DNA of 64,000 bases. Source: Antedon mediterranea. Lineage: Eukaryota > Animalia > Echinodermata. Below the pieces are notes generated by a model. That model did not search any database. It saw only the letters and a list, made by a program, of their open reading frames with translations, and was not told the DNA's origin. A program made the translations under genes and the position numbers. Shown one piece after another: positions 1-25,017 of the stretch. The stretch spans positions 15,686,001-15,750,000 of the forward strand of contig NC_092674.1 in NCBI RefSeq assembly GCF_964355755.1, in the 5' to 3' direction. Position 1 is the stretch's first letter, and every line of letters starts with the position of its first letter.

Positions 1-707
1 TCGCTGCAATTCAAGTGGTTTATGGATTGGAGATCTAGCTCCATCGGTGCATTGCGTGATATCGTATACAGGTATGCCACCCACTCGTTGTAAGTGTTGG
101 ATGTTACGTGGTACTTCGTTCCATTCACTATAATGATATATGGCAGATAGTATTGCCAACCGTCTGTCAATCGATACCTATAACAAGAAAACAACATTAT
201 TTATTAATAACGATGATCATGTAAATAAATAATAAGGATAATCAATGGTATTTCTGTTAAAATTACAAATGTAAGGAGCATTACTAGTAAAATGACAAAA
301 GTATTGTAACCGAATAAGTAATGTAAGTAAGTTGCAGGCAGTGAGTTTTATTTAAGAAAAGGTTATTACAAATAATGTGGTAGAAAGAAGTTTCGTATCG
401 ATCATTAAATTACCTGTAAAGGCCAACATTGTTATTGCAATGAATAAGTTGGTTTAATAATGTAAATCACATACCTGTGTCTGTCAACCTTTTCGATATA
501 CGGAGATTCATTGAAGATCTGTCGAACACATTCTCTGACATTCCTCATATTATACTTCTCCGGACAAATTTTATCAATAATGTGCAGCACGTTTAGAGAA
601 CCGCTGGTAGTATCTGGACAACGGAGAAGAGCCGCCACAACAAGTTCTTGAAATGAGAGAGGCATCATCAATGTATCGGTGAGATCGGAGAACATCATGC
701 AAGACAT
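1..707 (-). CDS. Forkhead/winged-helix-like two-exon gene, partial copy (exon 1 707..475; exon 2 from 177, running off the window)
   Basis: Same structure as the 1716..2567 copy; S66N allele. Confidence 0.65.
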
Positions 708-779
708 ATTTAGGTTATTCGTCGTTCGGATAATAGTCGAATGGTAGCTTTTCAGATAATTCAGTTGACTTTAATAGTT

Positions 780-814
780 GAATGCCGTAGAAATCAAAGG
801 CACACCATTTTATA
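780..814 (-). promoter_or_regulatory. Predicted Pol II core promoter of the forkhead-like gene: TATAAAA (814..808) plus Inr-like GCATTC (A at 783); repeated in each unit
   Basis: The first T of TATAAAA is 31 nt upstream of the A in CA+1TTC, the canonical TATA-Inr spacing. ATG follows 76 nt later at 707. Confidence 0.6.
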
Positions 815-857
815 AATGTCTTTGTCGGTTAGATATTAATGAAAGAACAAGAAAAAC

Positions 858-931
858 ACAATAGAAACAATGGCTGCGTTGAGTAACGCGGGCGCAATCG
901 CAACAATAAACAATTTTAAAACAATAGAAAC
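858..931. promoter_or_regulatory. Cluster of Sox-type AACAAT motifs and one Fox-type ATAAACA in the divergent intergenic region
   Basis: AACAAT at 866, 902, 909 and 920; ACAATAGAAAC direct repeat at 858 and 921; ATAAACA at 906-912. Function is inferred only. Confidence 0.3.
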
Positions 932-1124
932 GGTAAAGCAAAGAAAGCAGATGACACTTTAATGATTTGTCGGTATGAAATTACAACTTCCAATACTATT
1001 AAAAACAACTAGCATTTAAATTTAGTTGATATGAAAATATGTTTGAGAATAGACTACAGTTAATGTAAGTTACAGAAGAGTATATTACTATTTACATTAT
1101 GACACTGTAACTGAATATAAATAC

Positions 1125-1150
1125 CAGAATGACACTTGTACAACGATACC
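1125..1150 (+). promoter_or_regulatory. Expected position of the U1 proximal sequence element (PSE)
   Basis: Positional inference (about -65 to -45 from U1 +1 at 1192). Contains ATGACACT, also found at 951 and 1099. PSE sequence is lineage-specific, so it cannot be verified by eye. Confidence 0.3.
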
Positions 1151-1191
1151 AAGCCAATATGTCAGCTAAGAAGGTGGTATGGCGTTTAAGC

Positions 1192-1357
1192 ATACTTACC
1201 TGGCACAGGAGCGACTTTGATCAGGAAGGAATGTCCTCCCAAGATGAGGCCTCAGCATTGCACACACGGCTGCGGTTGACCCTTGCGATTCCCCCAAACG
1301 TGGGGAACTCGGGTGTATAATTTATGGTAGCGGGGGACTGCGTTCGCGCTAACCCCC
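1192..1357 (+). ncRNA. U1: U1 spliceosomal snRNA
   Basis: 5' ATACTTACCTGG; SL1 GGAG-GAC-TTT/GATCAGGAAG loop/GAA-GTC-CTCC; SL2 loop ATTGCAC (U1A site); SL3 TTCCCC-CAAACGT-GGGGAA; Sm site AATTTATGG (1319-1327); SL4 GGGGGACTGCGTTCGCGCTAACCCC. 3' end uncertain by about 2 nt. Confidence 0.98.
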
Positions 1358-1715
1358 ACCCCAATTCGACATTAATATTAGATAAGCCTATGCAGTTCAC
1401 GATAATCGTTAGTTTAATTAAGAACACTTGATATATAACTATTTATGGTTACATTATCTGTTTTGAAACTTTGTTGGTTTGTAACTATTTATTTTCCCTT
1501 AACAACTATTGGTATAGCATATTGACAGGCGTTGAACGCTTCATAATTATTTCGAAGCGTACGAAGAATAATATCAAACTCTAGATTAAACAAAATCAAG
1601 TAGTCTATTATAGAACTTAGGTATTTAAATAATTTTATTACTTTCTGTTAAACGATAATTATATTTCACTTACAATATGTATTAAATGCTATTTATTTAT
1701 AGATATTTTATTTAT

Positions 1716-2567
1716 TTACATGTCATATTGTTCTTTTCGAAGAAGTTTGGCGATAGAAAACCTTTGACATTTTAGACTCAATGATGAAGACGTAGTATGT
1801 ACAGCGTTTAATTGTTCTGTTTCAGTTTGTAAGCAATGCTGTTTTTCTTCGCCATTTCTATCGCTGCAATTCAAGTGGTTTATGGATTGGAGATCTAGCT
1901 CCATCGGTGCATTGCGTGATATCGTATACAGGTATGCCACCCACTCGTTGTAAGTGTTGGATGTTACGTGGTACTTCGTTCCATTCACTATAATGATATA
2001 TGGCAGATAGTATTGCCAACCGTCTGTCAATCGATACCTATAACAAGAAAACAACATTATTTATTAATAACGATGATCATGTAAATAAATAATAAGGATA
2101 ATCAATGGTATTTCTGTTAAAATTACAAATGTAAGGAGCATTACTAGTAAAATGACAAAAGTACTGTAACCGAATAAGAAATGTAAGTAAGTTGCAGGCA
2201 GTGAGTTTTATTTAAGAAAAGGTTATTACAAATAATGTGGTAGAAAGAAGTTTCGTATCGATCAGTAAATTACCTCTAAAGGCCAACATTGTTATTGCAA
2301 TGAATAAGTTGGTTTAATAATGTAAATCACATACCTGTGTCTGTCAACCTTTTCGATATACGGAGATTCACTGAAGATCTGTCGAACACATTCTCTGACA
2401 TTCCTCATATTATACTTCTCCGGACAAATTTTATCAATAATGTGCAGCACGTTTAGAGAACCGCTGGTAGTATCTGGACAACGGAGAAGAGCCGCCACAA
2501 CAAGTTCTTGAAATGAGAGAGGCATCATCAATGTATCGGTGAGATCGGAGAACATCATGCAAGACAT
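1716..2567 (-). CDS. Predicted 184-aa divergent forkhead/winged-helix-like protein with C-terminal eh1-like motif; exon 1 2567..2335, intron 2334..2038, exon 2 2037..1716
   Basis: Donor CAG|GTATGT and acceptor TTTTCTTGTTATAG|G are both phase 2, so the 91-aa and 113-aa ORFs join in frame. PLSFQELVVAALLRCP...ICP...RECVRQIFSESPYIEKVDR resembles the forkhead pattern PYSYxxLIxxAIxxSP...FP...xNSIRHNLSxxxxFxKVxR. FSIAKLL near the C-terminus; AATAAA directly after the stop. Confidence 0.72.
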
Positions 2568-3051
2568 ATTTAGGTTATTCGTCGTTCGGATAATAGTCGA
2601 ATGGTAGCTTTTCAGATAATTCAGTTGACTTTAATAGTTGAATGCCGTAGAAATCAAAGGCACACCATTTTATAAATGTCTTTGTCGGTTAGATATTAAT
2701 GAAAGAACAAGAAAAACACAATAGAAACAATGGCTGCGTTGAGTAACGCGGGCGCAATCGCAACAATAAACAATTTTAAAACAATAGAAACGGTAAAGCA
2801 AAGAAAGCAGATGACACTTTAATGATTTGTCGGTATGAAATTACAACTTCCAATACTATTAAAAACAACTAGCATTTAAATTTAGTTGATATGAAAATAT
2901 GTTTGAGAATAGACTACAGTTAATGTAAGTTACAGAAGAGTATATTACTATTTACATTATGACACTGTAACTGAATATAAATACCAGAATGACACTTGTA
3001 CAACGATACCAAGCCAATATGTCAGCTAAGAAGGTGGTATGGCGTTTAAGC

Positions 3052-3217
3052 ATACTTACCTGGCACAGGAGCGACTTTGATCAGGAAGGAATGTCCTCCC
3101 AAGATGAGGCCTCAGCATTGCACACACGGCTGCGGTTGACCCTTGCGATTCCCCCAAACGTGGGGAACTCGGGTGTATAATTTATGGTAGCGGGGGACTG
3201 CGTTCGCGCTAACCCCC
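3052..3217 (+). ncRNA. U1: U1 snRNA
   Basis: Same as the 1192 copy. Confidence 0.97.
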
Positions 3218-3575
3218 ACCCCAATTCGACATTAATATTAGATAAGCCTATGCAGTTCACGATAATCGTTAGTTTAATTAAGAACACTTGATATATAACT
3301 ATTTATGGTTACATTATCTGTTTTGAAACTTTGTTGGTTTGTAACTATTTATTTTCCCTTAACAACTATTGGTATAGCATATTGACAGGCGTTGAACGCT
3401 TCATAATTATTTCGAAGCGTACGAAGAATAATATCAAACTCTAGATTAAACAAAATCAAGTAGTCTATTATAGAACTTAGGTATTTAAATAATTTTATTA
3501 CTTTCTGTTAAACGATAATTATATTTCACTTACAATATGTATTAAATGCTATTTATTTATAGATACTTTATTTAT

Positions 3576-4427
3576 TTACATGTCATATTGTTCTTTTCGA
3601 AGAAGTTTGGCGATAGAAAACCTTTGACATTTTAGACTCAATGATGAAGACGTAGTATGTACAGCGTTTAATTGTTCTGTTTCAGTTTGTAAGCAATGCT
3701 GTTTTTCTTCGCCATTTCTATCGCTGCAATTCAAGTGGTTTATGGATTGGAGATCTAGCTCCATCGGTGCATTGCGTGATATCGTATACAGGTATGCCAC
3801 CCACTCGTTGTAAGTGTTGGATGTTACGTGGTACTTCGTTCCATTCACTATAATGATATATGGCAGATAGTATTGCCAACCGTCTGTCAATCGATACCTA
3901 TAACAAGAAAACAACATTATTTATTAATAACGATGATCATGTAAATAAATAATAAGGATAATCAATGGTATTTCTGTTAAAATTACAAATGTAAGGAGCA
4001 TTACTAGTAAAATGACAAAAGTACTGTAACCGAATAAGAAATGTAAGTAAGTTGCAGGCAGTGAGTTTTATTTAAGAAAAGGTTATTACAAATAATGTGG
4101 TAGAAAGAAGTTTCGTATCGATCAGTAAATTACCTCTAAAGGCCAACATTGTTATTGCAATGAATAAGTTGGTTTAATAATGTAAATCACATACCTGTGT
4201 CTGTCAACCTTTTCGATATACGGAGATTCACTGAAGATCTGTCGAACACATTCTCTGACATTCCTCATATTATACTTCTCCGGACAAATTTTATCAATAA
4301 TGTGCAGCACGTTTAGAGAACCGCTGGTAGTATCTGGACAACGGAGAAGAGCCGCCACAACAAGTTCTTGAAATGAGAGAGGCATCATCAATGTATCGGT
4401 GAGATCGGAGAACATCATGCAAGACAT
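3576..4427 (-). CDS. Forkhead-like two-exon gene, intact copy
   Basis: Same splice sites and frame as 1716..2567. Confidence 0.7.
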
Positions 4428-4911
4428 ATTTAGGTTATTCGTCGTTCGGATAATAGTCGAATGGTAGCTTTTCAGATAATTCAGTTGACTTTAATAGTTG
4501 AATGCCGTAGAAATCAAAGGCACACCATTTTATAAATGTCTTTGTCGGTTAGATATTAATGAAAGAACAAGAAAAACACAATAGAAACAATGGCTGCGTT
4601 GAGTAACGCGGGCGCAATCGCAACAATAAACAATTTTAAAACAATAGAAACGGTAAAGCAAAGAAAGCAGATGACACTTTAATGATTTGTCGGTATGAAA
4701 TTACAACTTCCAATACTATTAAAAACAACTAGCATTTAAATTTAGTTGATATGAAAATATGTTTGAGAATAGACTACAGTTAATGTAAGTTACAGAAGAG
4801 TATATTACTATTTACATTATGACACTGTAACTGAATATAAATACCAGAATGACACTTGTACAACGATACCAAGCCAATATGTCAGCTAAGAAGGTGGTAT
4901 GGCGTTTAAGC

Positions 4912-5077
4912 ATACTTACCTGGCACAGGAGCGACTTTGATCAGGAAGGAATGTCCTCCCAAGATGAGGCCTCAGCATTGCACACACGGCTGCGGTTGAC
5001 CCTTGCGATTCCCCCAAACGTGGGGAACTCGGGTGTATAATTTATGGTAGCGGGGGACTGCGTTCGCGCTAACCCCC
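4912..5077 (+). ncRNA. U1: U1 snRNA
   Basis: Same as the 1192 copy. Confidence 0.97.
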
Positions 5078-5435
5078 ACCCCAATTCGACATTAATATTA
5101 GATAAGCCTATGCAGTTCACGATAATCGTTAGTTTAATTAAGAACACTTGATATATAACTATTTATGGTTACATTATCTGTTTTGAAACTTTGTTGGTTT
5201 GTAACTATTTATTTTCCCTTAACAACTATTGGTATAGCATATTGACAGGCGTTGAACGCTTCATAATTATTTCGAAGCGTACGAAGAATAATATCAAACT
5301 CTAGATTAAACTAAATCAAGTAGTCTATTATAGAACTTAGGTATTTAAATAATTTTATTACTTTCTGTTAAACGATAATTATATTTCACTTACAATATGT
5401 ATTAAATGCTATTTATTTATAGATATTTTATTTAT

Positions 5436-6287
5436 TTACATGTCATATTGTTCTTTTCGAAGAAGTTTGGCGATAGAAAACCTTTGACATTTTAGACTCA
5501 ATGATGAAGACGTAGTATGTACAGCGTTTAATTGTTCTGTTTCAGTTTGTAAGCAATGCTGTTTTTCTTTGCCATTTCTATCGCTGCAATTCAAGTGGTT
5601 TATGGATTGGAGATCTAGCTCCATCGGTGCATTGCGTGATATCGTATACAGGTATGCCACCCACTCGTTGTAAGTGTTGGATGTTACGTGGTACTTCGTT
5701 CCATTCACTATAATGATATATGGCAGATAGTATTGCCAACCGTCTGTCAATCGATACCTATAACAAGAAAACAACATTATTTATTAATAACGATGATCAT
5801 GTAAATAAATAATAAGGATAATCAATGGTATTTCTGTTAAAATTACAAATGTAAGGAGCATTACTAGTAAAATGACAAAAGTACTGTAACCGAATAAGAA
5901 ATGTAAGTAAGTTGCAGGCAGTGAGTTTTATTTAAGAAAAGGTTATTACAAATAATGTGGTAGAAAGAAGTTTCGTATCGATCAGTAAATTACCTCTAAA
6001 GGCCAACATTGTTATTGCAATGAATAAGTTGGTTTAATAATGTAAATCACATACCTGTGTCTGTCAACCTTTTCGATATACGGAGATTCACTGAAGATCT
6101 GTCGAACACATTCTCTGACATTCCTCATATTATACTTCTCCGGACAAATTTTATCAATAATGTGCAGCACGTTTAGAGAACCGCTGGTAGTATCTGGACA
6201 ACGGAGAAGAGCCGCCACAACAAGTTCTTGAAATGAGAGAGGCATCATCAATGTATCGGTGAGATCGGAGAACATCATGCAAGACAT
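5436..6287 (-). CDS. Forkhead-like two-exon gene, intact copy (E>K in exon 2)
   Basis: Same structure. Confidence 0.7.
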
Positions 6288-6771
6288 ATTTAGGTTATTC
6301 GTCGTTCGGATAATAGTCGAATGGTAGCTTTTCAGATAATTCAGTTGACTTTAATAGTTGAATGCCGTAGAAATCAAAGGCACACCATTTTATAAATGTC
6401 TTTGTCGGTTAGATATTAATGAAAGAACAAGAAAAACACAATAGAAACAATGGCTGCGTTGAGTAACGCGGGCGCAATCGCAACAATAAACAATTTTAAA
6501 ACAATAGAAACGGTAAAGCAAAGAAAGCAGATGACACTTTAATGATTTGTCGGTATGAAATTACAACTTCCAATACTATTAAAAACAACTAGCATTTAAA
6601 TTTAGTTGATATGAAAATATGTTTGAGAATAGACTACAGTTAATGTAAGTTACAGAAGAGTATATTACTATTTACATTATGACACTGTAACTGAATATAA
6701 ATACCAGAATGACACTTGTACAACGATACCAAGCCAATATGTCAGCTAAGAAGGTGGTATGGCGTTTAAGC

Positions 6772-6937
6772 ATACTTACCTGGCACAGGAGCGACTTTGA
6801 TCAGGAAGGAATGTCCTCCCAAGATGAGGCCTCAGCATTGCACACACGGCTGCGGTTGACCCTTGCGATTCCCCCAAACGTGGGGAACTCGGGTGTATAA
6901 TTTATGGTAGCGGGGGACTGCGTTCGCGCTAACCCCC
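6772..6937 (+). ncRNA. U1: U1 snRNA
   Basis: Same as the 1192 copy. Confidence 0.97.
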
Positions 6938-7295
6938 ACCCCAATTCGACATTAATATTAGATAAGCCTATGCAGTTCACGATAATCGTTAGTTTAATTA
7001 AGAACACTTGATATATAACTATTTATGGTTACATTATCTGTTTTGAAACTTTGTTGGTTTGTAACTATTTATTTTCCCTTAACAACTATTGGTATAGCAT
7101 ATTGACAGGCGTTGAACGCTTCATAATTATTTCGAAGCGTACGAAGAATAATATCAAACTCTAGATTAAACAAAATCAAGTAGTCTATTATAGAACTTAG
7201 GTATTTAAATAATTTTATTACTTTCTGTTAAACGATAATTATATTTCACTTACAATATGTATTAAATGCTATTTATTTATAGATATTTTATTTAT

Positions 7296-8147
7296 TTACA
7301 TGTCATATTGTTCTTTTCGAAGAAGTTTGGCGATAGAAAACCTTTGACATTTTAGACTCAATGATGAAGACGTAGTATGTACAGCGTTTAATTGTTCTGT
7401 TTCAGTTTGTAAGCAATGCTGTTTTTCTTCGCCATTTCTATCGCTGCAATTCAAGTGGTTTATGGATTGGAGATCTAGCTCCATCGGTGCATTGCGTGAT
7501 ATCGTATACAGGTATGCCACCCACTCGTTGTAAGTGTTGGATGTTACGTGGTACTTCGTTCCATTCACTATAATGATATATGGCAGATAGTATTGCCAAC
7601 CGTCTGTCAATCGATACCTATAACAAGAAAACAACATTATTTATTAATAACGATGATCATGTAAATAAATAATAAGGATAATCAATGGTATTTTTGTTAA
7701 AATTACAAATGTAAGGAGCATTACTAGTAAAATGACAAAAGTACTGTAACCGAATAAGTAATGTAAGTAAGTTGCAGGCAGTGAGTTTTATTTAAGAAAA
7801 GGTTATTACAAATAATGTGGTAGAAAGAAGTTTCGTATCGATCAGTAAATTACCTCTAAAGGCCAACATTGTTATTGCAATGAATAAGTTGGTTTAATAA
7901 TGTAAATCACATACCTGTGTCTGTCAACCTTTTCGATATACGGAGATTCACTGAAGATCTGTCGAACACATTCTCTGACATTCCTCATATTATACTTCTC
8001 CGGACAAATTTTATCAATAATGTGCAGCACGTTTAGAGAACCGCTGGTAGTATCTGGACAACGGAGAAGAGCCGCCACAACAAGTTCTTGAAATGAGAGA
8101 GGCATCATCAATGTATCGGTGAGATCGGAGAACATCATGCAAGACAT
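7296..8147 (-). CDS. Forkhead-like two-exon gene, intact copy
   Basis: Same structure. Confidence 0.7.
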
Positions 8148-8631
8148 ATTTAGGTTATTCGTCGTTCGGATAATAGTCGAATGGTAGCTTTTCAGATAAT
8201 TCAGTTGACTTTAATAGTTGAATGCCGTAGAAATCAAAGGCACACCATTTTATAAATGTCTTTGTCGGTTAGATATTAATGAAAGAACAAGAAAAACACA
8301 ATAGAAACAATGGCTGCGTTGAGTAACGCGGGCGCAATCGCAACAATAAACAATTTTAAAACAATAGAAACGGTAAAGCAAAGAAAGCAGATGACACTTT
8401 AATGATTTGTCGGTATGAAATTACAACTTCCAATACTATTAAAAACAACTAGCATTTAAATTTAGTTGATATGAAAATATGTTTGAGAATAGACTACAGT
8501 TAATGTAAGTTACAGAAGAGTATATTACTATTTACATTATGACACTGTAACTGAATATAAATACCAGAATGACACTTGTACAACGATACCAAGCCAATAT
8601 GTCAGCTAAGAAGGTGGTATGGCGTTTAAGC

Positions 8632-8797
8632 ATACTTACCTGGCACAGGAGCGACTTTGATCAGGAAGGAATGTCCTCCCAAGATGAGGCCTCAGCATTG
8701 CACACACGGCTGCGGTTGACCCTTGCGATTCCCCCAAACGTGGGGAACTCGGGTGTATAATTTATGGTAGCGGGGGACTGCGTTCGCGCTAACCCCC
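8632..8797 (+). ncRNA. U1: U1 snRNA
   Basis: Same as the 1192 copy. Confidence 0.97.
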
Positions 8798-9155
8798 ACC
8801 CCAATTCGACATTAATATTAGATAAGCCTATGCAGTTCACGATAATCGTTAGTTTAATTAAGAACACTTGATATATAACTATTTATGGTTACATTATCTG
8901 TTTTGAAACTTTGTTGGTTTGTAACTATTTATTTTCCCTTAACAACTATTGGTATAGCATATTGACAGGCGTTGAACGCTTCATAATTATTTCGAAGCGT
9001 ACGAAGAATAATATCAAACTCTAGATTAAACAAAATCAAGTAGTCTATTATAGAACTTAGGTATTTAAATAATTTTATTACTTTCTGTTAAACGATAATT
9101 ATATTTCACTTACAATATGTATTAAATGCTATTTATTTATAGATATTTTATTTAT

Positions 9156-9994
9156 TTACATGTCATATTGTTCTTTTCGAAGAAGTTTGGTGATAGAAAA
9201 CCTTTGACATTTTAGACTCAATGATGAAGACGTAGTATGTACAGCGTTTAATTGTTCTGTTTCAGTTTGTAAGCAATGCTGTTTTTCTTCGCCATTTCTA
9301 TCGCTGCAATTCAAGTGGTTTATGGATTGGAGATCTAGCTCCGTGATATCGTATACAGGTATGCCACCCACTCGTTGTAAGTGTTGGATGTTACGTGGTA
9401 CTTCGTTCCATTCACTATAATGATATATGGCAGATAGTATTGCCAACCGTCTGTCAATCGATACCTATAACAAGAAAACAACATTATTTATTAATAACGA
9501 TGATCATGTAAATAAATAATAAGGATAATCAATGGTATTTCTGTTAAAATTACAAATGTAAGGAGCATTACTAGTAAAATGACAGAAGTACTGTAACCGA
9601 ATAAGAAATGTAAGTAAGTTGCAGGCAGTGAGTTTTATTTAAGAAAAGGTTATTACAAATAATGTGGTAGAAAGAAGTTTCGTATCGATCAGTAAATTAC
9701 CTCTAAAGGCCAACATTGTTATTGCAATGAATAAGTTGGTTTAATAATGTAAATCACATACCTGTGTCTGTCAACCTTTTCGATATACGGAGATTCACTG
9801 AAGATCTGTCGAACACATTCTCTGACATTCCTCATATTATACTTCTCAGGACAAATTTTATCAATAATGTGCAGCACGTTTAGAGAACCGCTGGTAGTAT
9901 CTGGACAACGGAGAAGAGCCGCCACAACAAGTTCTTGAAATGAGAGAGGCATCATCAATGTATCGGTGAGATCGGAGAACATCATGCAAGACAT
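9156..9994 (-). pseudogene. Forkhead-like gene with 13-bp frameshift deletion in exon 2 (predicted 120 aa, no eh1)
   Basis: ATCGGTGCATTGC missing at 9342/9343; the frame then reads YTISRS-stop. Confidence 0.6.
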
Positions 9995-10478
9995 ATTTAG
10001 GTTATTCGTCGTTCGGATAATAGTCGAATGGTAGCTTTTCAGATAATTCAGTTGACTTTAATAGTTGAATGCCGTAGAAATCAAAGGCACACCATTTTAT
10101 AAATGTCTTTGTCGGTTAGATATTAATGAAAGAACAAGAAAAACACAATAGAAACAATGGCTGCGTTGAGTAACGCGGGCGCAATCGCAACAATAAACAA
10201 TTTTAAAACAATAGAAACGGTAAAGCAAAGAAAGCAGATGACACTTTAATGATTTATCGGTATGAAATTACAACTTCCAATACTATTAAAAACAACTAGC
10301 ATTTAAATTTAGTTGATATGAAAATATGTTTGAGAATAGACTACAGTTAATGTAAGTTACAGAAGAGTATATTACTATTTACATTATGACACTGTAACTG
10401 AATATAAATACCAGAATGACACTTGTACAACGATACCAAGCCAATATGTCAGCTAAGAAGGTGGTATGGCGTTTAAGC

Positions 10479-10644
10479 ATACTTACCTGGCACAGGAGCG
10501 ACTTTGATCAGGAAGGAATGTCCTCCCAAGATGAGGCCTCAGCATTGCACACACGGCTGCGGTTGACCCTTGCGATTCCCCCAAACGTGGGGAACTCGGG
10601 TGTATAATTTATGGTAGCGGGGGACTGCGTTCGCGCTAACCCCC
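10479..10644 (+). ncRNA. U1: U1 snRNA
   Basis: Same as the 1192 copy. Confidence 0.97.
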
Positions 10645-10911
10645 ACCCCAATTCGACATTAATATTAGATAAGCCTATGCAGTTCACGATAATCGTTAGT
10701 TTAATTAAGAACACTTGATATATAACTATTTATGGTTACATTATCTGTTTTGAAACTTTGTTGGTTTGTAACTATTTATTTTCCCTTAACAACTATTGGT
10801 ATAGCATATTGACAGGCGTTGAACGCTTCATAATTATTTCGAAGCGTACGAAGAATAATATCAAACTCTAGATTAAACAAAATCAAGTAGTCTATTATAG
10901 AACTTACGTAT

Positions 10912-11691
10912 TTAAATAGTATGTACAGCGTTTAATTGTTCTGTTTCAGTTTGTAAGCAATGCTGTTTTTCTTCGCCATTTCTATCGCGGCAATTCAAGT
11001 GGTTTATGGATTGGAGATCTAGCTCCATCGGTGCATTGCGTGATATCGTATACAGGTATGCCACCCACTCGTTGTAAGTGTTGGATGTTACGTGGTACTT
11101 CGTTCCATTCACTATAATGATATATGGCAGATAGTATTGCCAACCGTCTGTCAATCGATACCTATAACAAGAAAACAACATTATTTATTAATAACGATGA
11201 TCATGTAAATAAATAATAAGGATAATCAATGGTATTTCTGTTAAAATTACAAATGTAAGGAGCATTACTAGTAAAATGACAAAAGTACTGTAACCGAATA
11301 AGAAATGTAAGTAAGTTGCAGGCAGTGAGTTTTATTTAAGAAAAGGTTATTACAAATAATGTGGTAGAAAGAAGTTTCGTATCGATCAGTAAATTACCTC
11401 TAAAGGCCAACATTGTTATTGCAATGAATAAGTTGGTTTAATAATGTAAATCACATACCTGTGTCTGTCAACCTTTTCGATATACGGAGATTCACTGAAG
11501 ATCTGTCGAACACATTCTCTGACATTCCTCATATTATACTTCTCCGGACAAATTTTATCAATAATGTGCAGCACGTTTAGAGAACCGCTGGTAGTATCTG
11601 GACAACGGAGAAGAGCCGCCACAACAAGTTCTTGAAATGAGAGAGGCATCATCAATGTATCGGTGAGATCGGAGAACATCATGCAAGACAT
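10912..11691 (-). CDS. Forkhead-like gene, 163-bp deletion allele (predicted 160 aa, eh1 and proximal AATAAA lost)
   Basis: Junction TTTAAA-TA-GTATG at 10917-10918; ORF ends VHTI-stop. Confidence 0.6.
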
Positions 11692-12175
11692 ATTTAGGTT
11701 ATTCGTCGTTCGGATAATAGTCGAATGGTAGCTTTTCAGATAATTCAGTTGACTTTAATAGTTGAATGCCGTAGAAATCAAAGGCACACCATTTTATAAA
11801 TGTCTTTGTCGGTTAGATATTAATGAAAGAACAAGAAAAACACAATAGAAACAATGGCTGCGTTGAGTAACGCGGGCGCAAACGCAACAATAAACAATTT
11901 TAAAACAATAGAAACGGTAAAGCAAAGAAAGCAGATGACACTTTAATGATTTGTCGGTATGAAATTACAACTTCCAATACTATTAAAAACAACTAGCATT
12001 TAAATTTAGTTGATATGAAAATATGTTTGAGAATAGACTACAGTTAATGTAAGTTACAGAAGAGTATATTACTATTTACATTATGACACTGTAACTGAAT
12101 ATAAATACCAGAATGACACTTGTACAACGATACCAAGCCAATATGTCAGCTAAGAAGGTGGTATGGCGTTTAAGC

Positions 12176-12341
12176 ATACTTACCTGGCACAGGAGCGACT
12201 TTGGTCAGGAAGGAATGTCCTCTCAAGATGAGGCCTCAGCATTGCACACACGGCTGCGGTTGACCCTTGCGATTCCCCCAAACGTGGGGAACTCGGGTGT
12301 ATAATTTATGGTAGCGGGGGACTGCGTTCGCGCTAACCCCC
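12176..12341 (+). ncRNA. U1: U1 snRNA variant (C48U; SL1 loop GGUCAGGAAG)
   Basis: ttggtcagga at 12201 and cctctc. Confidence 0.95.
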
Positions 12342-12699
12342 ACCCCAATTCGACATTAATATTAGATAAGCCTATGCAGTTCACGATAATCGTTAGTTTA
12401 ATTAAGAACACTTGATATATAACTATTTATGGTTACATTATCTGTTTTGAAACTTTGTTGGTTTGTAACTATTTATTTTCCCTTAACAACTATTGGTATA
12501 GCATATTGACAGGCGTTGAACGCTTCATAATTATTTCGAAGCGTACGAAGAATAATATCAAACTCTAGATTAAACAAAATCAAGTAGTCTATTATAGAAC
12601 TTAGGTATTTAAATAATTTTATTACTTTCTGTTAAACGATAATTATATTTCACTTACAATATGTATTAAATGCTATTTATTTATAGATATTTTATTTAT

Positions 12700-13551
12700 T
12701 TACATGTCATATTGTTCTTTTCGAAGAAGTTTGGCGATAGAAAACCTTTGACATTTTAGACTCAATGATGAAGACGTAGTATGTACAGCGTTTAATTGTT
12801 CTGTTTCAGTTTGTAAGCAATGCTGTTTTTCTTCGCCATTTCTATCGCTGCAATTCAAGTGGTTTATGGATTGGAGATCTAGCTCCATCGGTGCATTGCG
12901 TGATATCGTATACAGGTATGCCACCCACTCGTTGTAAGTGTTGGATGTTACGTGGTACTTCGTTCCATTCACTATAATGATATATGGCAGATAGTATTGC
13001 CAACCGTCTGTCAATCGATACCTATAACAAGAAAACAACATTATTTATTAATAACGATGATCATGTAAATAAATAATAAGGATAATCAATGGTATTTCTG
13101 TTAAAATTACAAATGTAAGGAGCATTACTAGTAAAATGACAAAAGTATTGTAACCGAATAAGTAATGTAAGTAAGTTGCAGGCAGTGAGTTTTATTTAAG
13201 AAAAGGTTATTACAAATAATGTGGTAGAAAGAAGTTTCGTATCGATCATTAAATTACCTGTAAAGGCCAACATTGTTATTGCAATGAATAAGTTGGTTTA
13301 ATAATGTAAATCACATACCTGTGTCTGTCAACCTTTTCGATATACGGAGATTCATTGAAGATCTGTCGAACACATTCTCTGACATTCCTCATATTATACT
13401 TCTCCGGACAAATTTTATCAATAATGTGCAGCACGTTTAGAGAACCGCTGGTAGTATCTGGACAACGGAGAAGAGCCGCCACAACAAGTTCTTGAAATGA
13501 GAGAGGCATCATCAATGTATCGGTGAGATCGGAGAACATCATGCAAGACAT
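12700..13551 (-). CDS. Forkhead-like two-exon gene, intact copy (S66N)
   Basis: Same structure. Confidence 0.7.
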
Positions 13552-14035
13552 ATTTAGGTTATTCGTCGTTCGGATAATAGTCGAATGGTAGCTTTTCAGA
13601 TAATTCAGTTGACTTTAATAGTTGAATGCCGTAGAAATCAAAGGCACACCATTTTATAAATGTCTTTGTCGGTTAGATATTAATGAAAGAACAAGAAAAA
13701 CACAATAGAAACAATGGCTGCGTTGAGTAACGCGGGCGCAATCGCAACAATAAACAATTTTAAAACAATAGAAACGGTAAAGCAAAGAAAGCAGATGACA
13801 CTTTAATGATTTGTCGGTATGAAATTACAACTTCCAATACTATTAAAAACAACTAGCATTTAAATTTAGTTGATATGAAAATATGTTTGAGAATAGACTA
13901 CAGTTAATGTAAGTTACAGAAGAGTATATTACTATTTACATTATGACACTGTAACTGAATATAAATACCAGAATGACACTTGTACAACGATACCAAGCCA
14001 ATATGTCAGCTAAGAAGGTGGTATGGCGTTTAAGC

Positions 14036-14199
14036 ATACTTACCTGGCACAGGAGCGACTTTGATCAGGAAGGAATGTCCTCCCAAGATGAGGCCTCAGC
14101 ATTGCACACACGGCTGCGGTTGACCCTTGCGATTCCCCCAAACGTGGGGAACTCGGGTATAATTTATGGTAGCGGGGGACTGCGTTCGCGCTAACCCCC
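14036..14199 (+). ncRNA. U1: U1 snRNA variant with 2-nt deletion in the 3' strand of helix H
   Basis: CGGGTATAATTT instead of CGGGTGTATAATTT at about 14154-14165. Confidence 0.9.
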
Positions 14200-14557
14200 A
14201 CCCCAATTCGACATTAATATTAGATAAGCCTATGCAGTTCACGATAATCGTTAGTTTAATTAAGAACACTTGATATATAACTATTTATGGTTACATTATC
14301 TGTTTTGAAACTTTGTTGGTTTGTAACTATTTATTTTCCCTTAACAACTATTGGTATAGCATATTGACAGGCGTTGAACGCTTCATAATTATTTCGAAGC
14401 GTACGAAGAATAATATCAAACTCTAGATTAAACAAAATCAAGTAGTCTATTATAGAACTTAGGTATTTAAATAATTTTATTACTTTCTGTTAAACGATAA
14501 TTATATTTCACTTACAATATGTATTAAATGCTATTTATTTATAGATATTTTATTTAT

Positions 14558-15409
14558 TTACATGTCATATTGTTCTTTTCGAAGAAGTTTGGCGATAGAA
14601 AACCTTTGACATTTTAGACTCAATGATGAAGACGTAGTATGTACAGCGTTTAATTGTTCTGTTTCAGTTTGTAAGCAATGCTGTTTTTCTTCGCCATTTC
14701 TATCGCTGCAATTCAAGTGGTTTATGGATTGGAGATCTAGCTCCATCGGTGCATTGCGTGATATCGTATACAGGTATGCCACCCACTCGTTGTAAGTGTT
14801 GGATGTTACGTGGTACTTCGTTCCATTCACTATAATGATATATGGCAGATAGTATTGCCAACCGTCTGTCAATCGATACCTATAACAAGAAAACAACATT
14901 ATTTATTAATAACGATGATCATGTAAATAAATAATAAGGATAATCAATGGTATTTCTGTTAAAATTACAAATGTAAGGAGCATTACTAGTAAAATGACAA
15001 AAGTACTGTAACCGAATAAGAAATGTAAGTAAGTTGCAGGCAGTGAGTTTTATTTAAGAAAAGGTTATTACAAATAATGTGGTAGAAAGAAGTTTCGTAT
15101 CGATCAGTAAATTACCTCTAAAGGCCAACATTGTTATTGCAATGAATAAGTTGGTTTAATAATGTAAATCACATACCTGTGTCTGTCAACCTTTTCGATA
15201 TACGGAGATTCACTGAAGATCTGTCGAACACATTCTCTGACATTCCTCATATTATACTTCTCCGGACAAATTTTATCAATAATGTGCAGCACGTTTAGAG
15301 AACCGCTGGTAGTATCTGGACAACGGAGAAGAGCCGCCACAACAAGTTCTTGAAATGAGAGAGGCATCATCAATGTATCGGTGAGATCGGAGAACATCAT
15401 GCAAGACAT
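14558..15409 (-). CDS. Forkhead-like two-exon gene, intact copy
   Basis: Same structure. Confidence 0.7.
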
Positions 15410-15893
15410 ATTTAGGTTATTCGTCGTTCGGATAATAGTCGAATGGTAGCTTTTCAGATAATTCAGTTGACTTTAATAGTTGAATGCCGTAGAAATCAAA
15501 GGCACACCATTTTATAAATGTCTTTGTCGGTTAGATATTAATGAAAGAACAAGAAAAACACAATAGAAACAATGGCTGCGTTGAGTAACGCGGGCGCAAA
15601 CGCAACAATAAACAATTTTAAAACAATAGAAACGGTAAAGCAAAGAAAGCAGATGACACTTTAATGATTTGTCGGTATGAAATTACAACTTCCAATACTA
15701 TTAAAAACAACTAGCATTTAAATTTAGTTGATATGAAAATATGTTTGAGAATAGACTACAGTTAATGTAAGTTACAGAAGAGTATATTACTATTTACATT
15801 ATGACACTGTAACTGAATATAAATACCAGAATGACACTTGTACAACGATACCAAGCCAATATGTCAGCTAAGAAGGTGGTATGGCGTTTAAGC

Positions 15894-16059
15894 ATACTTA
15901 CCTGGCACAGGAGCGACTTTGATCAGGAAGGAATGTCCTCTCAAGATGAGGCCTCAGCATTGCACACACGGCTGCGGTTGACCCTTGCGATTCCCCCAAA
16001 CGTGGGGAACTCGGGTGTATAATTTATGGTAGCGGGGGACTGCGTTCGCGCTAACCCCC
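15894..16059 (+). ncRNA. U1: U1 snRNA (C48U variant)
   Basis: cctctc allele. Confidence 0.97.
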
Positions 16060-16417
16060 ACCCCAATTCGACATTAATATTAGATAAGCCTATGCAGTTC
16101 ACGATAATCGTTAGTTTAATTAAGAACACTTGATATATAACTATTTATGGTTACATTATCTGTTTTGAAACTTTGTTGGTTTGTAACTATTTATTTTCCC
16201 TTAACAACTATTGGTATAGCATATTGACAGGCGTTGAACGCTTCATAATTATTTCGAAGCGTACGAAGAATAATATCAAACTCTAGATTAAACAAAATCA
16301 AGTAGTCTATTATAGAACTTAGGTATTTAAATAATTTTATTACTTTCTGTTAAACGATAATTATATTTCACTTACAATATGTATTAAATGCTATTTATTT
16401 ATAGATATTTTATTTAT

Positions 16418-17256
16418 TTACATGTCATATTGTTCTTTTCGAAGAAGTTTGGCGATAGAAAACCTTTGACATTTTAGACTCAATGATGAAGACGTAGTAT
16501 GTACAGCGTTTAATTGTTCTGTTTCAGTTTGTAAGCAATGCTGTTTTTCTTCGCCATTTCTATCGCTGCAATTCAAGTGGTTTATGGATTGGAGATCTAG
16601 CTCCGTGATATCGTATACAGGTATGCCACCCACTCGTTGTAAGTGTTGGATGTTACGTGGTACTTCGTTCCATTCACTATAATGATATATGGCAGATAGT
16701 ATTGCCAACCGTCTGTCAATCGATACCTATAACAAGAAAACAACATTATTTATTAATAACGATGATCATGTAAATAAATAATAAGGATAATCAATGGTAT
16801 TTCTGTTAAAATTACAAATGTAAGGAGCATTACTAGTAAAATGACAAAAGTATTGTAACCGAATAAGTAATGTAAGTAAGTTGCAGGCAGTGAGTTTTAT
16901 TTAAGAAAAGGTTATTACAAATAATGTGGTAGAAAGAAGTTTCGTATCGATCATTAAATTACCTGTAAAGGCCAACATTGTTATTGCAATGAATAAGTTG
17001 GTTTAATAATGTAAATCACATACCTGTGTCTGTCAACCTTTTCGATATACGGAGATTCATTGAAGATCTGTCGAACACATTCTCTGACATTCCTCATATT
17101 ATACTTCTCCGGACAAATTTTATCAATAATGTGCAGCACGTTTAGAGAACCGCTGGTAGTATCTGGACAACGGAGAAGAGCCGCCACAACAAGTTCTTGA
17201 AATGAGAGAGGCATCATCAATGTATCGGTGAGATCGGAGAACATCATGCAAGACAT
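16418..17256 (-). pseudogene. Forkhead-like gene with 13-bp frameshift deletion in exon 2
   Basis: Junction at 16604/16605. Confidence 0.6.
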
Positions 17257-17740
17257 ATTTAGGTTATTCGTCGTTCGGATAATAGTCGAATGGTAGCTTT
17301 TCAGATAATTCAGTTGACTTTAATAGTTGAATGCCGTAGAAATCAAAGGCACACCATTTTATAAATGTCTTTGTCGGTTAGATATTAATGAAAGAACAAG
17401 AAAAACACAATAGAAACAATGGCTGCGTTGAGTAACGCGGGCGCAATCGCAACAATAAACAATTTTAAAACAATAGAAACGGTAAAGCAAAGAAAGCAGA
17501 TGACACTTTAATGATTTGTCGGTATGAAATTACAACTTCCAATACTATTAAAAACAACTAGCATTTAAATTTAGTTGATATGAAAATATGTTTGAGAATA
17601 GACTACAGTTAATGTAAGTTACAGAAGAGTATATTACTATTTACATTATGACACTGTAACTGAATATAAATACCAGAATGACACTTGTACAACGATACCA
17701 AGCCAATATGTCAGCTAAGAAGGTGGTATGGCGTTTAAGC

Positions 17741-17906
17741 ATACTTACCTGGCACAGGAGCGACTTTGATCAGGAAGGAATGTCCTCCCAAGATGAGGCC
17801 TCAGCATTGCACACACGGCTGCGGTTGACCCTTGCGATTCCCCCAAACGTGGGGAACTCGGGTGTATAATTTATGGTAGCGGGGGACTGCGTTCGCGCTA
17901 ACCCCC
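17741..17906 (+). ncRNA. U1: U1 snRNA
   Basis: Same as the 1192 copy. Confidence 0.97.
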
Positions 17907-18264
17907 ACCCCAATTCGACATTAATATTAGATAAGCCTATGCAGTTCACGATAATCGTTAGTTTAATTAAGAACACTTGATATATAACTATTTATGGTTA
18001 CATTATCTGTTTTGAAACTTTGTTGGTTTGTAACTATTTATTTTCCCTTAACAACTATTGGTATAGCATATTGACAGGCGTTGAACGCTTCATAATTATT
18101 TCGAAGCGTACGAAGAATAATATCAAACTCTAGATTAAACAAAATCAAGTAGTCTATTATAGAACTTAGGTATTTAAATAATTTTATTACTTTCTGTTAA
18201 ACGATAATTATATTTCACTTACAATATGTATTAAATGCTATTTATTTATAGATATTTTATTTAT

Positions 18265-19116
18265 TTACATGTCATTTTGTTCTTTTCGAAGAAGTTTGGC
18301 GATAGAAAACCTTTGACATTTTAGACTCAATGATGAAGACGTAGTATGTACAGCGTTTAATTGTTCTGTTTCAGTTTGTAAGCAATGCTGTTTTTCTTCG
18401 CCATTTCTATCGCTGCAATTCAAGTGGTTTATGGATTGGAGATCTAGCTCCATCGGTGCATTGCGTGATATCGTATACAGGTATGCCACCCACTCGTTGT
18501 AAGTGTTGGATGTTACGTGGTACTTCGTTCCATTCACTATAATGATATATGGCAGATAGTATTGCCAACCGTCTGTCAATCGATACCTATAACAAGAAAA
18601 CAACATTATTTATTAATAACGATGATCATGTAAATAAATAATAAGGAAAATCAATGGTATTTCTGTTAAAATTACAAATGTAAGGAGCATTACTAGTAAA
18701 ATGACAAAAGTACTGTAACCGAATAAGAAATGTAAGTAAGTTGCAGGCAGTGAGTTTTATTTAAGAAAAGGTTATTACAAATAATGTGGTAGAAAGAAGT
18801 TTCGTATCGATCAGTAAATTACCTCTAAAGGCCAACATTGTTATTGCAATGAATAAGTTGGTTTAATAATGTAAATCACATACCTGTGTCTGTCAACCTT
18901 TTCGATATACGGAGATTCACTGAAGATCTGTCGAACACATTCTCTGACATTCCTCATATTATACTTCTCCGGAAAAATTTTATCAATAATGTGCAGCACG
19001 TTTAGAGAACCGCTGGTAGTATCTGGACAACGGAGAAGAGCCGCCACAACAAGTTCTTGAAATGAGAGAGGCATCATCAATGTATCGGTGAGATCGGAGA
19101 ACATCATGCAAGACAT
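18265..19116 (-). CDS. Forkhead-like two-exon gene, intact copy (C48F)
   Basis: Same structure. Confidence 0.7.
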
Positions 19117-19600
19117 ATTTAGGTTATTCGTCGTTCGGATAATAGTCGAATGGTAGCTTTTCAAATAATTCAGTTGACTTTAATAGTTGAATGCCGTAGA
19201 AATCAAAGGCACACCATTTTATAAATGTCTTTGTCGGTTAGATATTAATGAAAGAACAAGAAAAACACAATAGAAACAATGGCTGCGTTGAGTAACGCGG
19301 GCGCAATCGCAACAATAAACAATTTTAAAACAATAGAAACGGTAAAGCAAAGAAAGCAGATGACACTTTAATGATTTGTCGGTATGAAATTACAACTTCC
19401 AATACTATTAAAAACAACTAGCATTTAAATTTAGTTGATATGAAAATATGTTTGAGAATAGACTACAGTTAATGTAAGTTACAGAAGAGTATATTACTAT
19501 TTACATTATGACACTGTAACTGAATATAAATACCAGAATGACACTTGTACAACGATACCAAGCCAATATGTCAGCTAAGAAGGTGGTATGGCGTTTAAGC

Positions 19601-19766
19601 ATACTTACCTGGCACAGGAGCGACTTTGATCAGGAAGGAATGTCCTCCCAAGATGAGGCCTCAGCATTGCACACACGGCTGCGGTTGACCCTTGCGATTC
19701 CCCCAAACGTGGGGAACTCGGGTGTATAATTTATGGTAGCGGGGGACTGCGTTCGCGCTAACCCCC
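19601..19766 (+). ncRNA. U1: U1 snRNA
   Basis: Same as the 1192 copy. Confidence 0.97.
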
Positions 19767-20033
19767 ACCCCAATTCGACATTAATATTAGATAAGCCTAT
19801 GCAGTTCACGATAATCGTTAGTTTAATTAAGAACACTTGATATATAACTATTTATGGTTACATTATCTGTTTTGAAACTTTGTTGGTTTGTAACTATTTA
19901 TTTTCCCTTAACAACTATTGGTATAGCATATTGACAGGCGTTGAACGCTTCATAATTATTTCGAAGCGTACGAAGAATAATATCAAACTCTAGATTAAAC
20001 AAAATCAAGTAGTCTATTATAGAACTTACGTAT

Positions 20034-20813
20034 TTAAATAGTATGTACAGCGTTTAATTGTTCTGTTTCAGTTTGTAAGCAATGCTGTTTTTCTTCGCCA
20101 TTTCTATCGCGGCAATTCAAGTGGTTTATGGATTGGAGATCTAGCTCCATCGGTGCATTGCGTGATATCGTATACAGGTATGCCACCCACTCGTTGTAAG
20201 TGTTGGATGTTACGTGGTACTTCGTTCCATTCACTATAATGATATATGGCAGATAGTATTGCCAACCGTCTGTCAATCGATACCTATAACAAGAAAACAA
20301 CATTATTTATTAATAACGATGATCATGTAAATAAATAATAAGGATAATCAATGGTATTTCTGTTAAAATTACAAATGTAAGGAGCATTACTAGTAAAATG
20401 ACAAAAGTACTGTAACCGAATAAGAAATGTAAGTAAGTTGCAGGCAGTGAGTTTTATTTAAGAAAAGGTTATTACAAATAATGTGGTAGAAAGAAGTTTC
20501 GTATCGATCAGTAAATTACCTCTAAAGGCCAACATTGTTATTGCAATGAATAAGTTGGTTTAATAATGTAAATCACATACCTGTGTCTGTCAACCTTTTC
20601 GATATACGGAGATTCACTGAAGATCTGTCGAACACATTCTCTGACATTCCTCATATTATACTTCTCCGGACAAATTTTATCAATAATGTGCAGCACGTTT
20701 AGAGAACCGCTGGTAGTATCTGGACAACGGAGAAGAGCCGCCACAACAAGTTCTTGAAATGAGAGAGGCATCATCAATGTATCGGTGAGATCGGAGAACA
20801 TCATGCAAGACAT
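20034..20813 (-). CDS. Forkhead-like gene, 163-bp deletion allele
   Basis: Same junction as 10917. Confidence 0.6.
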
Positions 20814-21297
20814 ATTTAGGTTATTCGTCGTTCGGATAATAGTCGAATGGTAGCTTTTCAGATAATTCAGTTGACTTTAATAGTTGAATGCCGTAGAAAT
20901 CAAAGGCACACCATTTTATAAATGTCTTTGTCGGTTAGATATTAATGAAAGAACAAGAAAAACACAATAGAAACAATGGCTGCGTTGAGTAACGCGGGCG
21001 CAAACGCAACAATAAACAATTTTAAAACAATAGAAACGGTAAAGCAAAGAAAGCAGATGACACTTTAATGATTTGTCGGTATGAAATTACAACTTCCAAT
21101 ACTATTAAAAACAACTAGCATTTAAATTTAGTTGATATGAAAATATGTTTGAGAATAGACTACAGTTAATGTAAGTTACAGAAGAGTATATTACTATTTA
21201 CATTATGACACTGTAACTGAATATAAATACCAGAATGACACTTGTACAACGATACCAAGCCAATATGTCAGCTAAGAAGGTGGTATGGCGTTTAAGC

Positions 21298-21463
21298 ATA
21301 CTTACCTGGCACAGGAGCGACTTTGATCAGGAAGGAATGTCCTCTCAAGATGAGGCCTCAGCATTGCACACACGGCTGCGGTTGACCCTTGCGATTCCCC
21401 CAAACGTGGGGAACTCGGGTGTATAATTTATGGTAGCGGGGGACTGCGTTCGCGCTAACCCCC
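21298..21463 (+). ncRNA. U1: U1 snRNA (C48U variant)
   Basis: cctctc allele. Confidence 0.97.
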
Positions 21464-21821
21464 ACCCCAATTCGACATTAATATTAGATAAGCCTATGCA
21501 GTTCACGATAATCGTTAGTTTAATTAAGAACACTTGATATATAACTATTTATGGTTACATTATCTGTTTTGAAACTTTGTTGGTTTGTAACTATTTATTT
21601 TCCCTTAACAACTATTGGTATAGCATATTGACAGGCGTTGAACGCTTCATAATTATTTCGAAGCGTACGAAGAATAATATCAAACTCTAGATTAAACAAA
21701 ATCAAGTAGTCTATTATAGAACTTAGGTATTTAAATAATTTTATTACTTTCTGTTAAACGATAATTATATTTCACTTACAATATGTATTAAATGCTATTT
21801 ATTTATAGATATTTTATTTAT

Positions 21822-22673
21822 TTACATGTCATATTGTTCTTTTCGAAGAAGTTTGGCGATAGAAAACCTTTGACATTTTAGACTCAATGATGAAGACGTA
21901 GTATGTACAGCGTTTAATTGTTCTGTTTCAGTTTGTAAGCAATGCTGTTTTTCTTCGCCATTTCTATCGCTGCAATTCAAGTGGTTTATGGATTGGAGAT
22001 CTAGCTCCATCGGTGCATTGCGTGATATCGTATACAGGTATGCCACCCACTCGTTGTAAGTGTTGGATGTTACGTGGTACTTCGTTCCATTCACTATAAT
22101 GATATATGGCAGATAGTATTGCCAACCGTCTGTCAATCGATACCTATAACAAGAAAACAACATTATTTATTAATAACGATGATCATGTAAATAAATAATA
22201 AGGATAATCAATGGTATTTCTGTTAAAATTACAAATGTAAGGAGCATTACTAGTAAAATGACAAAAGTATTGTAACCGAATAAGTAATGTAAGTAAGTTG
22301 CAGGCAGTGAGTTTTATTTAAGAAAAGGTTATTACAAATAATGTGGTAGAAAGAAGTTTCGTATCGATCATTAAATTACCTGTAAAGGCCAACATTGTTA
22401 TTGCAATGAATAAGTTGGTTTAATAATGTAAATCACATACCTGTGTCTGTCAACCTTTTCGATATACGGAGATTCATTGAAGATCTGTCGAACACATTCT
22501 CTGACATTCCTCATATTATACTTCTCCGGACAAATTTTATCAATAATGTGCAGCACGTTTAGAGAACCGCTGGTAGTATCTGGACAACGGAGAAGAGCCG
22601 CCACAACAAGTTCTTGAAATGAGAGAGGCATCATCAATGTATCGGTGAGATCGGAGAACATCATGCAAGACAT
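21822..22673 (-). CDS. Forkhead-like two-exon gene, intact copy (S66N)
   Basis: Same structure. Confidence 0.7.
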
Positions 22674-23157
22674 ATTTAGGTTATTCGTCGTTCGGATAAT
22701 AGTCGAATGGTAGCTTTTCAGATAATTCAGTTGACTTTAATAGTTGAATGCCGTAGAAATCAAAGGCACACCATTTTATAAATGTCTTTGTCGGTTAGAT
22801 ATTAATGAAAGAACAAGAAAAACACAATAGAAACAATGGCTGCGTTGAGTAACGCGGGCGCAATCGCAACAATAAACAATTTTAAAACAATAGAAACGGT
22901 AAAGCAAAGAAAGCAGATGACACTTTAATGATTTGTCGGTATGAAATTACAACTTCCAATACTATTAAAAACAACTAGCATTTAAATTTAGTTGATATGA
23001 AAATATGTTTGAGAATAGACTACAGTTAATGTAAGTTACAGAAGAGTATATTACTATTTACATTATGACACTGTAACTGAATATAAATACCAGAATGACA
23101 CTTGTACAACGATACCAAGCCAATATGTCAGCTAAGAAGGTGGTATGGCGTTTAAGC

Positions 23158-23323
23158 ATACTTACCTGGCACAGGAGCGACTTTGATCAGGAAGGAATGT
23201 CCTCCCAAGATGAGGCCTCAGCATTGCACACACGGCTGCGGTTGACCCTTGCGATTCCCCCAAACGTGGGGAACTCGGGTGTATAATTTATGGTAGCGGG
23301 GGACTGCGTTCGCGCTAACCCCC
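23158..23323 (+). ncRNA. U1: U1 snRNA
   Basis: Same as the 1192 copy. Confidence 0.97.
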
Positions 23324-23681
23324 ACCCCAATTCGACATTAATATTAGATAAGCCTATGCAGTTCACGATAATCGTTAGTTTAATTAAGAACACTTGATAT
23401 ATAACTATTTATGGTTACATTATCTGTTTTGAAACTTTGTTGGTTTGTAACTATTTATTTTCCCTTAACAACTATTGGTATAGCATATTGACAGGCGTTG
23501 AACGCTTCATAATTATTTCGAAGCGTACGAAGAATAATATCAAACTCTAGATTAAACAAAATCAAGTAGTCTATTATAGAACTTAGGTATTTAAATAATT
23601 TTATTACTTTCTGTTAAACGATAATTATATTTCACTTACAATATGTATTAAATGCTATTTATTTATAGATATTTTATTTAT

Positions 23682-24533: not shown

Positions 24534-25017
24534 ATTTAGGTTATTCGTCGTTCGGATAATAGTCGAATGGTAGCTTTTCAGATAATTCAGTTGACTTTAA
24601 TAGTTGAATGCCGTAGAAATCAAAGGCACACCATTTTATAAATGTCTTTGTCGGTTAGATATTAATGAAAGAACAAGAAAAACACAATAGAAACAATGGC
24701 TGCGTTGAGTAACGCGGGCGCAATCGCAACAATAAACAATTTTAAAACAATAGAAACGGTAAAGCAAAGAAAGCAGATGACACTTTAATGATTTGTCGGT
24801 ATGAAATTACAACTTCCAATACTATTAAAAACAACTAGCATTTAAATTTAGTTGATATGAAAATATGTTTGAGAATAGACTACAGTTAATGTAAGTTACA
24901 GAAGAGTATATTACTATTTACATTATGACACTGTAACTGAATATAAATACCAGAATGACACTTGTACAACGATACCAAGCCAATATGTCAGCTAAGAAGG
25001 TGGTATGGCGTTTAAGC

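Follow-up and report, generated by a model that had tools for sequence, protein, structure and literature searches.

Fox factors of classes A, B, C, D, E, H, I, L and Q are known to combine a forkhead domain with an eh1 motif (PMC1939712). The eh1 pattern FS(I/V)XX-phi-phi-X has been tied to Groucho/TLE binding, and eh1-like motifs were described in more than half of the Fox proteins, in most cases at a C-terminal position 30–180 residues from the domain (PMC1939712). Within the FOX domain, whose elements follow the order H1-S1-H2-H3-S2-wing1-S3, N and H of the motif N(S/A)IRH (N54c and H58c) make the usual direct hydrogen bonds to bases (PMC8501956), and the base-contacting residues are described as strictly conserved even where specificity differs (PMC7062188). 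Lineage-specific divergent Fox genes have been described in echinoderms and spiralians, namely the fast-evolving foxY genes and the expanded foxQ2 paralogs; copies of foxQ2 occur in clusters, and a C-terminal eh1-like motif is present in one of its clades (bioRxiv 10.1101/2022.03.02.482670). Kilobase tandem units with a protein gene or an snRNA gene are represented by the human macrosatellites D4Z4 (DUX4), RS447 (USP17) and RNU2, and DUX4 is a transcription factor encoded in such a unit (PMC5687341). In sea urchin, a repeated U1 gene has also been reported to undergo a developmental switch (Santiago and Marzluff 1989; Nash et al. 1989, cited in PMC4291461).

The window, that is, the whole stretch of 64,000 nucleotides of Antedon mediterranea DNA that was analysed, is a tandem array (1..64000) of a 1,860-bp unit, the copies of which are about 99–100% alike and which runs past both window ends. 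Each unit holds a U1 snRNA gene and a spliced gene for a protein with a predicted forkhead-like winged helix and an eh1 motif. This protein resembles the eh1-bearing Fox factors in predicted fold, in the C-terminal position of eh1 and in the variable linker; it differs from them in giving no match to PF00250, in carrying ECVRQ or QCVRK for N(S/A)IRH, in its length of only 184 aa, in a shorter wing 1 (model residues 11–94 span FOXN1 270–364) and in a conserved extension of 37 residues after the domain. The foxY and foxQ2 proteins are set apart by their description, since they can still be identified as Forkhead-containing and assigned positions in trees, and no snRNA array is described for them in the part of the preprint cited; none of them surfaced in the homolog searches with this gene family. 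In the table of PMC5687341 no unit holds both kinds of gene, whereas the 1.86-kb unit described here pairs an snRNA gene head-to-head with a spliced protein gene. The sea urchin repeat is likewise a case of repeated U1 in an echinoderm. Neither an snRNA array with a protein gene nor the locus of the homolog from Anneissia was found in the open-licence literature; subscription journals or supplements may list the gene. It is unusual for each unit of an snRNA array to contain a spliced protein gene.

The copy of the protein gene at 2567–1716 is encoded on the minus strand. Coding exon 1 (2567–2335, 233 nt) encodes residues 1–77 plus two bases and corresponds, on the basis of the homologs and of the model described below, to the predicted helices 1–3 and strand 2 of the winged helix. 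It is followed by a GT-AG intron in phase 2 (2334–2038, 297 nt; GTATGT...TTATAG) and by coding exon 2 (2037–1716, 322 nt with the stop), which contains the last strand of the domain, the conserved extension (residues 86–122; 1905..2015, minus strand), the variable linker and the eh1 motif. The joined frame comprises 184 aa and a stop. An initial annotation of this DNA had placed the donor at 2335/2334 and the acceptor at 2038/2037, both in phase 2, and had joined ORFs of 91 aa and 113 aa (stop-to-stop lengths 112 and 114 aa) into a protein of 184 aa; coordinates and phases were found as given there, and the joining was borne out by the frame, by shuffling and by both homologs. In 300 dinucleotide shuffles of the non-U1 part, read on both strands, a two-exon frame of at least 184 aa was never obtained (median 43, maximum 110). 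The donor matches the 5′ end of the U1 of its own unit at 8/9 positions and is the top match among 1,693 non-U1 bases on both strands, in which seven other sites match at 7/9. The acceptor is the sole AG within the final 60 nt of the intron, and a branch-like TTAAT places its A at −27 (position 2064). The GC content of the exons (0.425 and 0.391) exceeds that of the intron (0.269) and of the 3′ spacer (0.252). The splice donor and acceptor ends are unaltered in all 33 array copies. Because the two homologs each carry both halves in one chain, the splice is well supported, and we judge it almost certain that the gene is really spliced as described.

A TATAAAA box (2668..2674, minus strand) at 107 nt upstream of the ATG is a candidate promoter, and AATAAA hexamers (starting at 1716, 1712 and 1697; 1692..1716, minus strand) just behind the stop are candidate polyA signals; the TATA box and the hexamers are consensus matches only, the latter in AT-rich DNA. 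In sequencing runs that consisted of contigs throughout (five runs from two samples) no join of the two exons was observed, and run X1 spans the intron and the spacers in one piece, as DNA would. Expression of the gene from the U1 array is, in our judgement, rather likely.

When the exon-1 frame was compared with all of 1.84 billion representatives, two proteins were returned, P0001 (E 2e-19) and P0002 (E 3.5e-16). P0001 (XP_033095719.1) is the uncharacterised LOC117100230 of the crinoid Anneissia japonica and may itself be a predicted gene model; P0002 is an ENA protein on a contig of 2,283 bases. The size of that contig is near that of one repeat unit. Over the domain the window protein is about 60% identical to the two homologs, and the alignment with P0002 crosses the exon junction without a gap. 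Exon 2 is also matched by P0001 and P0002 (41% and 40%); the search with exon 2 itself gave no match at E ≤ 0.1. Identity to P0001 amounts to 66/107 over residues 16–122 (44/70 in the winged-helix part and 22/37 in the extension), to 5/42 in the linker and to 8/13 in the eh1 block. In the extension (residues 86–122), 20/37 residues are identical in P0002. For the contrast between domain, linker and eh1 in the comparison with P0001, Fisher tests gave p values of 2e-8 and 8e-4, the segment limits having been picked after the alignment was seen; the contrast between linker and domain is weaker for P0002, whose linker shares more residues with that of the window protein (15/42). The conservation relative to P0001 is the pattern expected of a protein under long-term selection. 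Searches with P0001 (among proteins of 112–357 residues) and with the family alignment (among proteins of 42–438 residues) yielded no third relative, and no phage match was found. In P0002 the linker is expanded by short cysteine-containing repeats (residues about 139–216), with eh1 still at the very end. A metagenomic match, L001 (36% over 33 residues), was put down to chance and rejected, since the DNA around it is prokaryote-like. A match of the exon-1 frame to the formin INF2 (E 0.008) was likewise rejected, because part of it came from reading through into the intron and the family profile gave it no better than E 0.6; Pfam rows for TraP, Glyco_hydro_81, PMG and Mu-conotoxin were all beneath their cut-offs and were discarded.

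The fold was assessed with a predicted model of the Anneissia homolog P0001, which stands in for the spliced window protein. P0001 was folded with AlphaFold from a four-row alignment (mean pLDDT 48.8, pTM 0.48); in residues 21–90 the block pLDDT was 62–85. Three helices (18–27, 36–46 and 53–66) are followed by two strands (70–72 and 79–81), so that the model shows the winged-helix order of helices and strands of the FOX domain. The extension was modelled with low confidence as a hairpin and a helix, which occupy the place of wing 2. Foldseek listed 33 rows for this model, 31 of them forkhead domains (highest probability 1.00, highest target TM 0.74), with nothing at E ≤ 0.001 (best 0.016). In a VIA-align search of 48,161 PDB representatives the best nine matches were all forkhead domains, with Z values of 7.6–6.1, in a range (under 8) that may reflect a common arrangement or fold; the best match was FOXM1 (Z 7.6, rmsd 2.5, 84 aligned), and the first non-forkhead chain was MTF2 (Z 5.7). 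The best 39 rows of a second-look structure comparison were also forkhead domains. Sequence identity in the structural matches was only 8–17%. The exon-1 frame of the window, folded alone from its single sequence (pLDDT 51.7), gave no clear fold match, with FoxP4 and FOXP3 at Z 3.6 beneath unrelated rows. The forkhead-like reading is based on rank order, in that a single family comes before numerous other winged-helix chains. The forkhead/winged-helix character proposed in the initial annotation is supported by the AlphaFold and Foldseek check suggested there, as applied to the homolog's model, and by VIA-align. By our judgement a winged-helix fold is very probable from the model, and descent from a Fox gene is likely.

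Comparisons of sequence gave a different picture. Pfam Forkhead (PF00250), the profile against which the initial annotation had proposed to check the protein, gave no row for the exons or for the two full-length homologs, and no forkhead match was returned by sequence searches of the PDB. A forkhead HMM was built from six domains collected by motif scans (PF00250 E 9e-18 or better); the scans had given ten loci, from which L002, L006, L008 and L011 were dropped for lack of an open forkhead frame. With this HMM the spliced protein scored 0.7 bits, a value equalled or exceeded by 332 of 2,000 shuffles, and profile–profile alignment with hhalign gave a probability of 0.2, both profiles being shallow. 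The HMM nevertheless aligns the protein in the register proposed initially and needs just one gap, of one residue, to place the first three helices; the register stands in this respect, but its score is not significant. Since a forkhead profile match is missing and the N(S/A)IRH motif is replaced, the protein is described as forkhead-like and is not classed as a Fox member.

In this non-significant register, W, N, S, I, R and H of the forkhead domain correspond to V57, E59, C60, V61, R62 and Q63, and the codons for E59-C60-V61-R62-Q63 (2379..2393, minus strand) take the place of N(S/A)IRH. Replacement of W, N, S and H (by V57, E59, C60 and Q63), which had been read from the sequence beforehand, agrees with this alignment, and R is kept as R62. 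The motif reads ECVRQ in the window and QCVRK in Anneissia; in P0002, where three to four residues of the recognition helix are missing, it is partly deleted. NSIRH is invariant in all six control forkhead domains. With the base-reading N and H replaced and R retained, the specificity for DNA would probably be altered, as the initial annotation had proposed, and would be other than RYAAAYA, which along with GACGC is a target of Fox proteins.

The eh1 motif FSIAKLLR (residues 171–178; 1737..1760, minus strand) fits the pattern FS(I/V)XX-phi-phi-X exactly, as do FSIDELLK and FSIDELIR in the homologs; in all three proteins it lies near the C-terminal end behind a variable linker, and the gap between domain and eh1 is about 85 residues. 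It is probably a repressor motif that would recruit Groucho/TLE, and to this extent it supports an origin from Fox and a role as a repressor. Neither eh1 nor the U1 array is mentioned in the initial annotation.

The window contains 33 full-length U1 matches (Rfam RF00003), all on the plus strand (87.3–130.4 bits; gathering threshold 69.5), and 33 starts of the protein gene, one per U1 unit. The gene at 2567–1716 lies tail-to-tail with the U1 gene of the same unit (1192..1358, plus strand), 357 bp from its stop, and head-to-head with the next U1 gene (3052..3218, plus strand; 130.4 bits), from which its ATG is separated by a spacer of 484 bp (2568..3051). The protein genes of the array are all placed in this way between the previous and the next U1. 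A unit with a deletion is followed by a unit with an identical six-change haplotype three times (10479/12176, 19601/21298 and 26878/28575), and these recurring pairs suggest unequal crossing-over. The unit, with intron and open frames, was recovered from the second sample in run X1 with five differences. Among the listed matches in runs X1–X4 (80% likeness) the coding exons had no second, diverged counterpart, so that the array may be the only home of the protein gene, with the reservation that contigs cannot show absence.

We favour, with modest confidence, a Fox gene ancestor that gave rise to a crinoid forkhead-derived winged-helix protein. This protein would bind DNA through its re-coded helix 3 and repress transcription by recruiting Groucho/TLE through the C-terminal eh1. 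Its gene would be transcribed by polymerase II from the TATA box of the spacer that gene and U1 have in common, and would have been multiplied with U1 by unequal crossing-over between units. Variation among the copies bears on a somewhat improbable alternative, in which a genuine gene became trapped among the U1 copies and was multiplied as a passenger only because U1 dosage is under selection, most or all of its copies now being silent or decaying. Coding substitutions (14 missense, 4 silent, no nonsense) do not differ from neutral expectation (P 0.54 and 0.39), and eh1 is lost from 8 of the 32 complete copies through three indel events (a 163-bp deletion in four, a 13-bp deletion in three and a 4-bp insertion in one); 7 of these 8 retain the domain to about residue 118. 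In two neighbouring units (58403–58663 and 60525–60784) a 261-bp insertion with an ATA-repeat tail disrupts the TATA box, and the same two copies hold the most amino-acid changes (5 and 4). The neutral-looking substitutions, the losses of eh1 and the broken TATA box would suit a passenger. Against it, 24 of the 32 copies encode the full 184 aa with eh1, the splice-site ends are the same in every copy, and the gene may have no home outside the array. Moreover, U1 (8 substitutions in 167 bp) varies as much as the protein gene (18 in 555 coding bp), and variation inside the array therefore cannot separate functional from silent DNA.

The other alternatives concern the protein itself. A Fox-derived protein that no longer reads DNA sequence-specifically, and instead serves Groucho as an adaptor or sink or behaves on chromatin like a linker histone, is quite unlikely in our view. 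The equivalents of N54c and H58c are replaced in both the window and Anneissia, the helix is shortened in P0002, and linker histone H1/H5 domains come next in the structure search (Z 5.0–5.8, with no Pfam row); however, forkhead domains score up to 1.8 Z higher, and the R of the motif, with which FOXC2 can read bases in place of N and H (PMC8501956), is kept in the window and in Anneissia. Most improbable is a winged helix of separate origin, the likeness to forkhead being convergent or a bias of the predictor and eh1 having been gained independently. It would account for every sequence test against forkhead being negative, and eh1 may arise many times independently (PMC1939712); yet three structure searches rank forkhead ahead of many other winged-helix chains, and the HMM places the three helices with one single-residue gap. 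An extension of the favoured reading, which we consider unlikely, is that a crinoid-specific Fox-derived repressor with a re-coded helix has been hard-wired into the U1 array, that the 484-bp spacer as a two-way promoter and the copy number set both doses, and that copies without eh1 that retain the domain act as inbuilt competitors. If this were true, a spliceosome RNA and a transcription factor would be dosed jointly, for example in eggs or early embryos.

A Fox-like protein that is invisible to profile searches would be missed by echinoderm Fox inventories based on PF00250. A natural family with replaced base-contacting residues would allow a direct test of how the forkhead fold changes its specificity, and the dose of a putative transcription factor would be tied to the copy number of U1. 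Arrays of this kind are likely to be collapsed or masked in assemblies.

Several further features of the array were recorded. Part of one unit is present twice through an internal duplication of 978 bp (about 38013–38990) that starts within a U1 gene. In runs X2 and X4, contigs enter the unit at 2767 and exit at the 3′ end of U1 (3218); these loose ends are either ends of the array or a lone U1 that has this promoter but lacks the protein gene. Runs X2 and X5 also contain a second U1 sequence, which is divergent. A 42-bp AT-rich stretch (2765–2806), about 290–245 bp upstream of U1, begins with a forkhead-type ATAAACA site, and a copy with six differences was found on another contig in X2, X3 and X4; the stretch could be a shared snRNA distal element or a product of chance. 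One U1 gene is interrupted just before the Sm site by an antisense LINE-like fragment of 1,503 bp (49961–51463) with a 281-aa frame (50299–51144; zf-RVT, E 1.8e-7), a TAAA-repeat tail and GTAT duplicated at its ends; as there is one copy only, it gives no evidence that U1 is targeted by this element.

The six forkhead domains from the motif scans lie on contigs of varied size. Loci L003 and L005, on MAG contigs of 2–2.5 kb, look like eukaryotic contamination. L004, L007, L009 and L010, each around 401–429, contain forkhead domains (PF00250 E 9e-18 to 6e-31) on contigs of 13–515 kb from an Endozoicomonadaceae MAG, Kistimonas asteriae, K. scapharcae and Sansalvadorimonas verongulae, and may be horizontally acquired genes of eukaryotic type; the frame of L007 has stops in helix 1.
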